Source of the DNA: Macrostomum lignano
Lineage: Eukaryota
Assembly (NCBI GenBank): GCA_002269645.1
Contig: NIVC01000298.1
Span: 62,001-126,000 of the forward strand
Reading direction: 5' to 3'
DNA: 64,000 bases
Below, piece by piece: positions 49,001-64,000 of the stretch. The stretch's first letter is position 1, and every line of letters starts with the position of its first letter. The notes below the pieces were generated by a model. That model saw nothing but the letters and a program-made list of their open reading frames with translations. It was not told the DNA's origin and searched no databases. The position numbers and the translations under genes are program-made.

Positions 49001-50170
49001 TCTATAGTACATGCATTTGGCGCACCCGGAAATTACAGTAGATGATCGGAATTAAAACACTTAAACAAGTTAAGCTGCTAAGCTCGTGCTTATCTGCTCG
49101 TGCAGACCGTGCAAGATCTTCCTGCAGATCTTGTAAGTTCTGCCTATATATTATTTTTAAATAGTGCAGATCTGTTACGTTCTTGCAAGAACGTAGCGAG
49201 AAGCTCCAGACAGATCTGCTAAGAAATGGCATGACGATTTCATCTAGGGTATTTGCATGGCTCAATGGGTTAGAGGGCCTACGGCAATCTCCTAGTTTAC
49301 TGCGTTATTTTTCAGTTTTTTTTACACAGATGGTCGGAACAGGCGGAATACAAGTAGCGGACATATTGTTAATGTCAGATAAGTGTCAGATCAGTTGTGA
49401 GCCACCCAGTACAAGTTTCCGAAGACCTTTCCTAGAAACAGGCGGCGGCATGCCCATAGGCTCCCGTATCTTCTAAACACATCTAAACCCGTGGCTCCTG
49501 TAGGCCGGTTGATGTTAATGTCAATGAGCTTAGTGGTTGGCCTCAGTTCAGCTTCAGGGACGATTGTAGTTGGTGCTCTGGGCCTTCCAGCCATTGCAGA
49601 GTTGGCAAATTGGCTGAAAATTTTGATAAAACTGAAAAATAATTTAATGCAGTAAACTAGGAGATTGCCAGGCCTACTATAATCTATTTCACACAGGGCC
49701 GGGTCACAGACTTACTGCTTGTTGGTATCATCAAAACATTGTCGATAATTTTGGCTTTGCTTTGATTGATAAAAGAGGACATTTGCATTATATATGTAAT
49801 CCTCGTCCTTGTTGTGATTGTTTTTATGGCCATTGCTTTAATAAATAGCACTGCTACTAGCATTGTCATTGCATATAGATCTACTAGTTGATACAGATAA
49901 AGGTATTTATGGACCATAGCTTTTTCTTCATTTTTCAATATGTTACATAGACCAACATGTTTGTTCTAACTAAGGGGATCCCGGCAAAGTTGTCAACTTT
50001 TTATTCCTCAACTAGGTGTTGACGGGTACCAGTCGTTTCGGTGACAAGTTGTTTCGGTGACAAGTTGCTTTTGTGATAGACACACATTATTTTTGATGAA
50101 AAATTAAAGATTTAATGAGTATTAACAAGTAGAAGGCATGAGGGGGCTTCTGGGACAAAATTTTTCACTT

Positions 50171-50385
50171 CCTCCATAATCCCATTAAATCCATCCATAT
50201 TATCCCTGACAGAATCAGAAAAAAGGGGGGTCGCACTCGCTCACAAAACGTCCTCCATAATCCCATTAAATCCATCCATATTATCCCTGACAGAATCAGA
50301 AAAAAGAGGGGCCGCACTTGCTCCGAAAACTTCGAACATAATCCCATTAAATCCATCCATATTATCCCTGACAGAATCAGAGCAT
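50171..50385. repeat. 81-bp tandem repeat x3 near the left Polinton end
   Basis: ATAATCCCATTAAATCCATCCATATTATCCCTGACAGAATCAGA at 50176, 50257, 50338. Confidence 0.92.
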
Positions 50386-50589
50386 AACAGGTGTCCACTA
50401 ACACCTGCTATGCTCACTGAGACTGACATAATCCACTGACATCCACCCATAGCATCTTCGAAACAATCAGAAAAGAATCTGCATTATTCTCCCCACATTC
50501 AATTTGCAACGCGAAACCAGATCCGAAAGACTTTAAATTATCAGCGCAGGGTCCTTACCCTTTGAAAAAAAATTAAATTCTCAATAAAA

Positions 50590-50826
50590 ATGTTTCCAGT
50601 TGTCTCTCCAGGTTCCTATTATACTCAGCCTAATCCATTGTACAAATCCAAGTACCGATGCAAACTAGAATGCAGCGAGTACATGAGAAAATATTGGCCC
50701 GGCGTTGATATCAATGTCCCTAATATTAATCTAGCTCTCCAAAGACACTGGTTTGAAAAACATGGAGTAGTCATTAACGATTTTGACAGCTATTATAACT
50801 TTGCTGAAGTTATAAGGCAGTTGTAG
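50590..50826 (+). CDS. Small hypothetical protein (78 aa) at the Polinton left end
   Basis: ATAAAAATG context like other Polinton ORFs; convergent with the minor capsid gene; no motif recognised. Confidence 0.4.
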   Translation: MFPVVSPGSYYTQPNPLYKSKYRCKLECSEYMRKYWPGVDINVPNINLALQRHWFEKHGVVINDFDSYYNFAEVIRQL

Positions 50827-50882
50827 TAGTACAAGGTTGTACCTGGTGGCTTATATCGTAATTTTACAAGTCTGCAGACGAC

Positions 50883-51740
50883 TCACATTTTCTCAATAAT
50901 AATTGTTAGCACAAACTCTTCCCCGTTAAAATCGACACCAACTCCATCCTCTGTTTCAAACTGCAGAACGATTTCATGTATCTCTCTATTACTCAGAATC
51001 ACTCTTTTCACAGGGTTTGGCTTTTGCACAAGCATTTTGCCACCAGCAACAGAGTTTGAAATGTTAAAAAGTATGTTGGTTCGTTTGCCCTTGAATATCC
51101 AATCATGGCTCAGATTGCTGCGAATTAATATATTCAAACCTTTGACAATGTCAGCGATATTTGGCGCCAAGTACATACCGGATATTAGCCGGGATACAGC
51201 AACAGTGCCAGGCGCCTGCGGCGGGCTTTGGTCTGTGGCGCCACCATAAACTCTCTTTTCAAATCCCAACTCGCGATACCAAGTGCCATCTTTAAACTCT
51301 ACCTCTGCGTCCTTATGAACTTGCAAGACAACTCTCATGACAGTTAGATCATAAGTTAATCTAACAGGGAACAGTTTATTTTCTGGTTTGCTTTCATCCG
51401 GTATCTCAAAATGCTTTCGTTTAGTGAAGACGTTCTCCAAGAAGTAATTATAAGTATCCACGCTCTGTGTGCTGACAGGAAATATCACAACCTCTGTTGT
51501 AGTACGCTTCCATTTGTAATAAAACTTGTTATTTTCCGCTGTCACATTGGGAACATTTGACCACCCAGTGAAATCATTGAGATAGACGTGGTAATTCGCC
51601 TCGGGATCCAAACGAAGTGGTTGCTCCAATTTTTTAATGAAGATTCCGTTTGACTCAGTAATGCGACCCGCTACAGTGATTGGAATGCTCTCCTTAGAGT
51701 GTGAAACAATGTTGTTTAGTCTTTCGGCTATGGCTTCCAT
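50883..51740 (-). CDS. Polinton minor capsid (penton-like) protein
   Basis: L..PL.LD....Y.VYL..F.GW.N.PNVT..NNKFYY pattern; adjacent to and co-oriented with the MCP. Confidence 0.75.
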   Translation of the reverse strand: MEAIAERLNNIVSHSKESIPITVAGRITESNGIFIKKLEQPLRLDPEANYHVYLNDFTGWSNVPNVTAENNKFYYKWKRTTTEVVIFPVSTQSVDTYNYFLENVFTKRKHFEIPDESKPENKLFPVRLTYDLTVMRVVLQVHKDAEVEFKDGTWYRELGFEKRVYGGATDQSPPQAPGTVAVSRLISGMYLAPNIADIVKGLNILIRSNLSHDWIFKGKRTNILFNISNSVAGGKMLVQKPNPVKRVILSNREIHEIVLQFETEDGVGVDFNGEEFVLTIIIEKM

Positions 51741-61839: not shown

Positions 61840-62304
61840 TCACATGCGCATTATTGTAAACCCAGCATTGTGCAGTGTCATGATGGCTTTGACAATGTCA
61901 GATTTGCTTACAGAATTTTCATGCTCACAATCATCACGATCATCACAATCATCAAAATCAGGGCACCCATCTCCTGCCTTAATTGTTATACCTTTGTCTC
62001 TTGCAATCTTTTGTAATTCTAGCTGGTGGGCTCTATCATTCCCAGCTTTAACAGCAGTTGCTACACCTCCAGCTACACCACCTGCGGCACTTACAGCGCC
62101 TGCAATGATTGGGATAAGAGCTGCTAATGGTAGGATTCCTCCTGACTTTTCATCTGTGATGCTGTGTCTTTGCTCATTACACTGAACTATTTGCTGCACG
62201 GGATCGATTTTTACTTTGGCACCTTTAATTGATATAAGACCTGGTTTCTTTGATTCAATAATTTTATTGAGTTTATTGATGGTTCTGGTTTCAATCTTTG
62301 TCAT
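61840..62304 (-). CDS. Adenovirus pX-like / membrane-active core protein
   Basis: KSGG|ILPLAALIPIIAGAVSAAGG closely resembles the adenovirus pX C-terminal GGILPLLIPLIAAAIGA segment. Confidence 0.7.
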   Translation of the reverse strand: MTKIETRTINKLNKIIESKKPGLISIKGAKVKIDPVQQIVQCNEQRHSITDEKSGGILPLAALIPIIAGAVSAAGGVAGGVATAVKAGNDRAHQLELQKIARDKGITIKAGDGCPDFDDCDDRDDCEHENSVSKSDIVKAIMTLHNAGFTIMRM

Positions 62305-62320
62305 TTTTTATTTTAATATT

Positions 62321-63359
62321 TTAATTAATTTCTGTGTCAGCTGGTATCACTAGGAGTTCAGCTCTAGTGAATGACCGCGTGAGGGATTTAGGGTTAAACG
62401 CCTGAGATAAAAAGTAATACTCTCCAGAGTCGGAGGTAAAATGTCTGTCTATTTTATGTACATCAAGGCTGAAGTATGGATCTGTAGCTCTTCTTTTGGT
62501 GTATTTCTCTAGCTCTCCAGGTAGATATAAAAAGCGTAGAAACTCAGAGTTTGTGAGTATGTATGGCGATTCAACTCCTGGAAGCTTAGGGTAGTTCGAG
62601 GTGTGTTTTGTGTTGTGTGTGTTGTGTGGGGTTGTCGTGTTATTGTCTGTTCTATGAGATGCCTTAAGTTCGACAGTGTCTTGTTTAATTGCATGGGACG
62701 GTTTCAATCCAGTCATGCGTGTGACCTCATTGTTAAGTTGCTCAATAACAATGGGGAGTCTTTCTGTCCACTTGGTATAGTACTGCCCCGCACTCAGTTT
62801 GAGTTCTTGCGCTGTCTGCTTAGTGAATAGTCTCTTGGCTAGAGTTAGATTGAATCTTTCCACAAAAGCCTGGTCTCTGTTGAGCTCAGTTCTTCCGTAG
62901 CGAATCTTCGTATTTTTCTTTTCCATAAGGGATTTCACTGCACCCATGAATTCCTTACCCGGGTCGGTCATAAAGGTTTGGGGGTGTGTGAGCGGAGAGT
63001 TTTTATAAATATCTTGGAGGGCGGCTGCAACTGCTTCTGACTTCTTCGTCTTAAGCGGTCTCGCTTCCTTATATCTGGAGGCAATGTCTGTAATTGTGAG
63101 AGCATACTTGTAGCCTGAGTCATTGGGGAGAAACAGAAGATCTGCTTGGTGCGCCTCATTAGGTTTATAAATACTGAAATGGGGCCTTTCAAATTTTACT
63201 GGTGGGAAATAGACTTGAAAGACAGCCTGCTTAGAGAGCCATTTTTCTACTGTAGCTTTTGGTTCCTTACTCAGCTCCATGAGTTTACTAACAGCATTTT
63301 TGCCTACAAAGAATCCTTTGTCGCTGTAGTAGAGTTTTTTTAAGTTTCTGATCTGTCAT
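62321..63359 (-). CDS. Polinton retroviral-type (rve) integrase; N-terminus joined across an A7 slip near 63338
   Basis: HQADL, TDIASRY, TDPGKEF, VERFNLTL (D-D-E); upstream MTDQKLKK..YYSDKG in another frame. Confidence 0.92.
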
Positions 63360-63389
63360 TTATTTAAAAAGAAAATTTAAAATAAAATA

Positions 63390-63839
63390 ATGCAGCGCTC
63401 TGGTGGTAAAATAGATTCACATGGACTGATAGAAAAGCTTCCTCGTCCAAACAAAGGCTGGACAGTTCCGGGGTACAAATATTGCGGGCCTTTGAATCCA
63501 CTTGAAATACAGCTGGATGGAAACAACAACCCAAATCCTGGACATGAGCCTGTGAACGAGCTAGACTCTGTCTGCATGTGGCACGATGTTAAATATAGAG
63601 ATTTTCCTGAGGAGAAGAATCGCTGGGACAAAGAAATGCTTAGGAGATTAGACAGTATGGGGATTTCAAGCGGATTTCGTGAGTCGATTGCTAGGAAATT
63701 AGTCAAGGCGGTTATTTTTGGTAAGACAAAATTGGGGTTGGGGGTTGGTTTGGGAGAAGGGGTGGGCTTTGTGTTGCACGCGCCAAATAAAAAATTAGGA
63801 AGACTGCTGAAAGAGCTGGGGGTTGGGAGAGCAGAATGA
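63390..63839 (+). CDS. Parvovirus VP1u-type phospholipase A2 domain protein (PLA2X-like)
   Basis: WTVPGYKYCGPLN (Ca-binding loop YxGP) ... PVNELDSVCMWHDVKY (catalytic HD..Y) ... WDKEM; N-terminal RSGG and C-terminal KLGLG motifs. Confidence 0.88.
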   Translation: MQRSGGKIDSHGLIEKLPRPNKGWTVPGYKYCGPLNPLEIQLDGNNNPNPGHEPVNELDSVCMWHDVKYRDFPEEKNRWDKEMLRRLDSMGISSGFRESIARKLVKAVIFGKTKLGLGVGLGEGVGFVLHAPNKKLGRLLKELGVGRAE

Positions 63840-64000
63840 TTCAAGTGGCTCTAGCGGTTGAAAAGAAAGCTTGTAAAGGGCGGCTATATTTTCCTTATGA
63901 CATTTTGCCGCGTGGTGGGTGGGTGTTGAGCGGAACGGATATGGCAGCTGTTTCTTGTCAACCATTATACTATACTCAATGTGCCGCAGATACTGCAGTA

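Follow-up and report, generated by a model that had tools for sequence, protein, structure and literature searches.

A stretch of 64,000 nucleotides from Macrostomum lignano (contig NIVC01000298.1, positions 62,001 to 126,000; hereafter the window) ends in a Polinton, a DNA element that unites a protein-primed polymerase (PolB), an integrase and capsid genes, and raises the question whether such a copy is the relic of a transposon or belongs to a population that still spreads as a virus. Judged from genome sequence, the window copy is a decayed member of a family of about 240 copies, and this family probably spreads outside the chromosomes in particles, its genomes recombining during that stage. 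What deserves following up is the shuffling of alleles at the level of the family; the Polinton class and general mosaicism are already known, and module swapping in adintoviruses has been published (PMC8502044). In a literature search that had subscription journals, repeat databases and preprint supplements outside its reach, we came across no publication in which a pair of capsid alleles and a pair of ATPase alleles assort independently inside a single family of animal Polintons.

The distribution of alleles among copies carries this reading. Over 30 fetched copies and the window copy, the gene of the penton (minor capsid protein) falls into two clusters separated at 24% of bases, that of the major capsid protein (MCP) into two clusters 20% apart, and that of the packaging ATPase into two clusters at 19% of bases; protease, polymerase and pX genes each form a single pool, about 2-3% apart. 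Distances in the capsid genes and in the ATPase gene are uncorrelated (rho -0.02 to 0.02). In 46 copies, with duplicates removed by flank and capsid-A copies deliberately over-sampled, the four capsid and ATPase combinations occur 16, 10, 11 and 8 times beside one intragenic recombinant (odds ratio 1.16, Fisher p=1), and copies with matched target-site duplications (TSDs) include all four types. Sliding identity profiles place the block edges at positions common to dozens of copies, the connectors (for example the 5' end of the MCP gene and the divergent promoter) being 95-99% identical and the blocks 65-80%. ATPase allele b travels with one allele of the neighbouring gene of 398 amino acids (aa) in 16 of 18 cases, as expected of homologous crossing-over on a linear map. 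Both capsids also appear in short-read contigs of independent runs, capsid A in X12, X14 and X17 and capsid B in X12, X20 and X24; in X12 the depth of A, a rough guide, is about 1/5 to 1/4 that of B. A candidate third close capsid type, pursued with a 44%-identical outside MCP, gave the same two types only (97 of 536 candidates scored).

How large and how intact the family is was estimated by several routes. Exact allele-specific words occur at 47 capsid-A and 192 capsid-B sites over the whole assembly and an exact polymerase word at 244, control hits being zero in each case. The same insertion with its flank was assembled two or three times in places (e.g., L106/L113/L114 and L117/L119/L120), which inflates counts by about 1/5, and 54 typed stretches become 45 after collapsing duplicates; a fair estimate, and the result of the copy-number check that an earlier note on this DNA had proposed, is about 240 copies in the assembly and about 200 distinct insertions. 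Among the best 98 of 667 candidates scored in an MCP search, 29 lie at 92-100% and 69 at 83-84%, and two hold a stop, a sample that best-first scoring biases toward open frames. In 33 stretches chosen by their terminal inverted repeat (TIR) alone, frames were open for MCP in 9/12, penton in 9/14, ATPase in 8/13 and an integrase fragment in 9/15. The idea that capsid genes are selectively preserved was dropped: the zero frameshifts in 13 kb of penton were selection bias, and the effect was gone in copies picked by TIR only. Over 19 end pairs, the 6-bp TSD was perfect in 13, matched at five of six bases in two and unmatched in four. At L059 and L069, adjacent integrase and polymerase sequences at 25-37% identity represent other Polinton families nested in or beside copies.

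Selection on the virion genes leads in the same direction. Between alleles, the pairwise ratio of non-synonymous to synonymous change (dN/dS) is 0.06 for penton (dS 2.0), 0.08 for MCP (dS 1.1) and 0.04 for ATPase (dS 1.5), after removal of four duplicate copies, with pairs non-independent and a dS near 2 saturated. Since dS exceeds 1 between these alleles and is about 0.05 in the polymerase pool, the structural alleles are far older than that pool. Within alleles, dN/dS is 0.23 for penton, 0.13 for ATPase, 0.24 for protease and 0.18-0.29 for polymerase. Such purifying selection points to a virion stage, and purifying selection on morphogenesis genes has been used to argue for virions of fish Mavericks (PMC8097293).

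The capsid assignment itself stands on structure. A model of the MCP (a 427-residue natural fragment with 60 homologues) is a double jelly-roll (DJR) with a pLDDT of 90.4 and a pTM of 0.91; its best solved match is the Sputnik MCP (E 6.5e-20, TMq 0.66), followed by the MCPs of PBCV-1, an iridovirus and mavirus. The penton model is moderate (pLDDT 62, 14 sequences). Most of the viral structures that it hits are minor capsid proteins, at a best E of 8e-9 to 4e-8; Z is 8.8 against an EhV-201 chain (root-mean-square deviation, rmsd, 3.0 over 113), 6.3 against the mavirus penton (rmsd 14.7 over 186) and 5.4 against the Sputnik penton, with high rmsd. The structural check suggested in the earlier note thus came out as a jelly-roll for MCP and as a weaker model with minor capsid protein matches for penton.

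The window copy extends from AGTAG at 50128 to CTACT 2,646 bases beyond the window, 16,519 bp in total, its left end pairing in inverted orientation with a stretch 16.5 kb off on the same contig. The earlier note, which had seen a near-complete Polinton/adintovirus from 50160, was right on the identity and placed the start too far in; the element is complete once the next 2.6 kb are read. Extending the contig, as it had proposed, brought both the TIRs and the 6-bp TSD to light, the latter matched at five of six bases in this copy. The outer 448 bases of the two TIRs are identical at 440, with eight substitutions and one gap between the ends. Thirteen genes lie within the window, from 50590 to 63839, with Pfam or fold support for the morphogenesis module, PolB and integrase, in line with the at least 12 open reading frames (ORFs) announced. 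Pfam matched the DJR-like domain PF21738, a PolB fragment, the rve integrase domain, adenovirus pX and parvovirus-type PLA2 on the window proteins, and, the ATPase and protease matches given below aside, the remaining ORFs of this copy had no match in Pfam or PHROGs. The features are, in order:

50122..50127, + strand: left TSD, TTAACA (right flank TTAACG, 5/6)
50128..50860, + strand: left TIR, starting AGTAG; its inner part with the small ORF is the more diverged allele pair relative to the right end
50170..50381, no strand: 81-bp repeat, 2.6 copies, within the TIR
50590..50826, + strand: 78-aa ORF within the inverted repeat, no family match, dN/dS 0.39
50883..51740, - strand: uninterrupted gene of the penton (minor capsid protein; 285 aa), capsid allele A
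51763..53058, - strand: DJR MCP, allele A, in-frame stop at codon 4
53089..54285, + strand: 398-aa ORF, open, Gln-rich, several alleles across copies
54302..54697, + strand: ORF of about 130 aa, open, no family match, co-inherited with the ATPase allele
54723..54890, no strand: 21-bp tandem repeat, eight units, 5' of the ATPase gene
54932..55732, + strand: A32/FtsK-like packaging ATPase, allele a, Walker A GSSGSGKT, Walker B LIVFDD, stop at codon 17
55749..56555, + strand: coiled-coil ORF, 268 aa, open, length varying between copies, no family match
56666..57325, + strand: gene with two hydrophobic helices, frameshift near 56800, no family above cut-off
57330..57745, - strand: adenain-like cysteine protease (GSHWVC, FDSYG), frameshift near 57640
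57835..61698, - strand: protein-primed PolB, four frameshifts near 60940, 60700, 59980 and 59190
61840..62304, - strand: open gene of a pX-like core protein (PF05829), not joined to PLA2
62321..63359, - strand: rve integrase with D-D-E residues, frameshift near 63340
63390..63839, + strand: parvovirus-type PLA2 gene (PF08398), open, intronless
63840..64000, no strand: variable slot, of which the window holds the beginning only

Past the window come a 271-aa ORF of the variable slot, the other of the two small terminal ORFs and the right TIR (ending at L011:3646). The penton, 398-aa, pX-like, coiled-coil and PLA2 frames are open, as had been claimed; the name PZ-like given to the 398-aa ORF stands for a resemblance with no database match, and the two-helix gene may resemble the cupiennin/PW type, Pfam giving no match. 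The ATPase matches PF04665 (Pox_A32) above cut-off, and its sequence had no match in the PDB; the integrase matches PF00665 above cut-off, with QADL, TDPGKEF and VERFN present; the protease matches PF00770 at E 6-7e-4, just under cut-off, with its GSHW motif in place. For PolB, PF03175 matches one fragment only (E 3e-8, 33 bits) and not the natural full-length frame, and the protein shows the motifs YADFE, HNAKNYD and YTDTDS, vOTU-like Cys/His residues and an endonuclease-VII-like insertion. No group I intron (RF00028) was detected in the window or in 11 right-end loci, and GGNCC is not depleted in the window copy (16 sites vs 22 +/- 5). The PLA2 gene has a GGNCC word and is not fused to the integrase gene.

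Could this copy act by itself? The earlier note had listed the MCP among the uninterrupted genes and implied a near-functional element; neither holds. The MCP has an in-frame stop at codon 4 (53047-53049), and its 363-aa ORF begins at residue 65 of the folded fragment, without the first strands of jelly-roll 1; in the ATPase gene, codon 17 (54980-54982) is a stop, which precedes Walker A. Both lesions are private to the copy: they occur in 0/42 and 0/39 other aligned stretches, respectively, so that the sharing of the same lesions by all copies, named beforehand as a refuting outcome, was not observed. The other four damaged genes contain the seven frameshifts listed above, each of which departs from most or all compared copies; one more flag, near 59750, falls within an open frame and was left uncounted. 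Where a single insertion was assembled more than once, the versions show 11 indels and no substitutions in one case and 29 and 11 in another (8.3 kb each), 14 and 14 in a third (9.8 kb), 7 and 39 in a fourth (7.5 kb) and 14 and 24 in a fifth (9.1 kb). With 7-29 indels per 7.5-9.8 kb between such duplicates, seven frameshifts in 13 kb do not exceed the noise of the assembly; real decay more likely accounts for both stops, the mismatched TSD base and the 1.8% TIR divergence. The window copy is non-autonomous.

Copies also vary at their ends. In most copies an ORF of 78-80 aa lies within the inverted repeat at both ends and evolves at a dN/dS of 0.39 (55 distinct open copies), the two versions in the window copy being different alleles (203 identities, 28 mismatches, 15 gaps). 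Ten of the 12 copies that could be measured have TIRs at most 4.2% apart, the population median being 9%. TIR divergence was rejected as a general clock, two TSD-perfect copies having ends from different alleles. The slot between PLA2 and the right TIR varies from 52 to 3,288 bp (35 ends) and holds at least four mutually dissimilar ORFs of 225-271 aa with no family match. Their grouping into one family, a likeness by eye, was abandoned at pairwise E of 0.03 and 0.95, as was a tRNA in the slot, for which Rfam gave 36 bits at L023:1893-1963 only and ARAGORN nothing in 35 loci. In several copies (L023:740-1520, L037:1730-2141, L088:5195-5609, L091 and L095) the right inverted repeat reaches beyond the small ORF and takes in a portion of the penton gene, which suggests template switching at the ends.

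If the family does spread through particles, its cycle would follow from Polinton and adenovirus biology. An excised copy would be replicated by the protein-primed PolB, keeping both ends alike, in agreement with the protein-primed replication described for polymerases of TP-vOTU-exo-palm architecture (PMC11161782); co-replicating genomes would recombine within the connectors, where identity is 95-99%, and not in the blocks that these separate, where it is 65-80%; the ATPase would package the progeny into MCP and penton shells, PLA2 would help it out of endosomes, and the rve integrase would put it into germline DNA with a 6-bp duplication. The window copy would take capsid and ATPase from sister copies. 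A bolder version, which we advance only tentatively, is that the roughly 200 proviruses form a living recombining population that maintains two ancient capsids and two packaging motors in allelic balance and reshuffles them at fixed connectors, much as adenoviruses shuffle serotypes, with the record here kept in a germline. The same picture of a living population would add, with no greater assurance, an accessory slot whose content can be exchanged and a gene that forms part of each end of the genome.

Several observations weigh against this reading. The family is known here from genome sequence alone, and no related contigs were found in viral or metagenome collections. Selection between alleles reflects past, not current, activity, and the within-allele dN/dS of MCP (0.12) is biased, as copies were selected by MCP score. 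The 73 of 427 residues that differ between MCP A and B (21/169 in strands, 15/77 in helices, 37/173 in coil) cluster only mildly (p=0.017), which leaves a serotype-like surface change unsupported. Of 27 copies in which the polymerase was detected, just one has a polymerase frame open over more than 1,000 codons, much of that deficit being due to assembly indel noise. Given that flanks are unmatched in 4/19 end pairs, some copies are chimeric or ectopic recombinants. Finally, the TIRs of two perfect-TSD copies are 13-15% apart, which exchange after integration would fit too.

The strongest competitor is a family that is now a particle-free, self-synthesizing transposon of the germline nucleus, its capsid alleles having been selected in an earlier viral phase and its recombination occurring among co-replicating or integrated copies. 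We regard this as unlikely, though it gains from the high copy number in one genome, from the lack of free-virus contigs in those collections, from the two TSD-perfect copies with unlike TIRs and from the existence of copies with large deletions (two independent ones in penton, one in ATPase). Each penton deletion is, however, confined to a single insertion site, so no spreading capsid-less derivative was seen; in TIR-picked copies the capsid frames are open as often as the integrase (9/12 and 9/14 vs 9/15); and the genes that were not used for picking (penton, ATPase, protease) have a low within-allele dN/dS, like the polymerase.

A second alternative, compatible with the particle-forming stage that we favour, has the family depend on a helper in the manner of a virophage, with a large DNA virus supplying the machinery that transcribes its genes; this is rather improbable. 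Such dependence would account for the AT-only tract and the A-run that uniformly precede the core genes: at least five A in the six bases before ATG are found at 9/13 core starts vs 8/466 other ATGs, the 40 nt upstream are 81% AT vs 59%, and the alternative alleles of penton and ATPase retain the start context. The tract itself, present at nearly all core genes, consists of about 30 nt of near-pure A/T ending in an A-run before the ATG (for example at 51740, 53058, 54932, 61698 and 62304) and is weaker before variable-slot genes. Insect Polinton-like viruses tied to entomopoxviruses also exist (PMC11296320). Yet the start statistics have no host-gene control, broken genes had their starts assigned by inspection, that of the protease being perhaps 10 nt off; searches of the assembly for VLTF3 and for capsids of nucleocytoplasmic large DNA viruses found nothing, the controls being silent too. 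An A-rich start context is, moreover, common among invertebrate genes.

That assembly, by mixing reads from separate copies, created most of the mosaic haplotypes is very improbable: insertions assembled two or three times, the noise of 1-bp indels and the unmatched flanks would fit it, but all four combinations stand between matched TSDs, block edges recur across dozens of copies, duplicate assemblies of one insertion have the same alleles and independent short-read contigs contain both capsids. Runs guessed to be RNA were discarded as a source of expression data: X12, X14, X17 and X20 cover TIR and genes evenly, in a DNA-like manner, whereas X21 and X24 give low, patchy coverage, and a contig there ends in a T-run at the integrase 3' end, which internal priming would give as well. 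Expression of coral polintoviruses has been reported (PMC11131425).

Where does the family stand among known systems? Its PolB, rve integrase, TIRs and TSD, DJR MCP, penton, ATPase and adenain support membership of the Polintons/Mavericks (Polintoviricetes). Animal Polintons or adintoviruses, as described in PMC8502044 and PMC8097293, share these genes together with PLA2 and a pX-like gene, as well as the TIRs, the 6-bp TSD, a size of about 16 kb and purifying selection on virion genes. The present family differs from them in an MCP that is about 30% identical to other clusters beyond a few close metagenomic relatives, in PLA2 and pX as separate genes and in a small gene within both TIRs. It also combines a PF03175-distant polymerase with PLA2, a mark of Alpha-class virion modules in these descriptions, and has about 240 copies with mostly open capsid frames, whereas the vertebrate Mavericks that they cover are mostly low-copy or degraded. 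The archetypal PF03175 PolB and the PLA2X fusion of Alpha adintoviruses were not found (PF05829 lies in a separate gene); the PF03175 distance and the vOTU-like Cys/His residues would fit the divergent OTU-PolB of Beta adintoviruses, which clusters with the Terrapene type, and GasderminX and cupiennin-like genes had no Pfam match in the window copy. The MCP has eight close homologues at 42-76% before identity drops to about 30%, the atlas neighbours of an MCP homologue are unnamed capsid-like clusters, and the polymerase has 3,169 homologues (best 40-47% identity), some of them named from soft coral, sponge, mussel, dragonfly, sea slug and snake. From this drop and this number, the capsid lineage is isolated and the polymerase of an ordinary animal Polinton type.

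Recombination of related kinds is documented elsewhere. Nematode Polintons likewise exchange genes within one host genome, but in the account given all except pPolB1/pPolB2 diverge together (10.1101/2023.08.22.554363), whereas here the polymerase is uniform and free assortment concerns the blocks of capsid, ATPase and accessory genes. Replication and morphogenesis modules are also re-associated in mosaic polisuviruses, in elements linked to entomopoxviruses and in EMALE02, the swaps described being between distant lineages, in single genomes or across clades (10.64898/2026.10.13.758929; PMC11296320; PMC8547959); here, in contrast, two alleles per module segregate at intermediate frequency in one family, splitting capsid from ATPase. 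The working analogy is human adenovirus species D, a related virus, protein-primed and with a DJR capsid, in which variable blocks are swapped by homologous recombination on a conserved backbone (PMC3648800). As presented there, it is a non-integrating pathogen with hypervariable-region blocks; the Macrostomum family has whole-gene blocks in germline proviruses and no strong surface-loop clustering. Polinton-related insertions have also been recorded in flatworms (10.1101/2025.04.19.649669).

The surroundings of the window copy are animal DNA. Exons of a host poly(ADP-ribose) glycohydrolase (PARG; PF20811, PF05028), interrupted by minisatellites, lie at 18510-24062 on the + strand. A short Ty3-like long terminal repeat element at 27809-30414 has 204-nt direct repeats that are 99% identical and one 725-aa gag-protease-integrase frame, with no reverse transcriptase match, and pieces of Ty3/gypsy elements with gag-protease and reverse transcriptase-RNaseH frames occupy both strands at 40832-45298. 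Inverted-repeat elements with tandem subunits (16787-17384 with 32346-32957; 33062-34095; 45347-46014) are probably non-autonomous DNA transposons.

Particles of animal Polintons have not been observed, as far as the account in PMC8097293 goes. Two capsids that can be told apart by sequence, in about 240 young copies with mostly open capsid frames, mean that reads or peptides specific to one allele could put spread by particles to the test. Alleles of the capsid and of the packaging ATPase that are about 20% of bases apart are interchangeable, and TIR divergence or single-gene trees can mislead the dating or classification of such elements. If the family is indeed a living virus population, it would offer a direct handle on animal Polinton virions and on the reason why two capsids persist.

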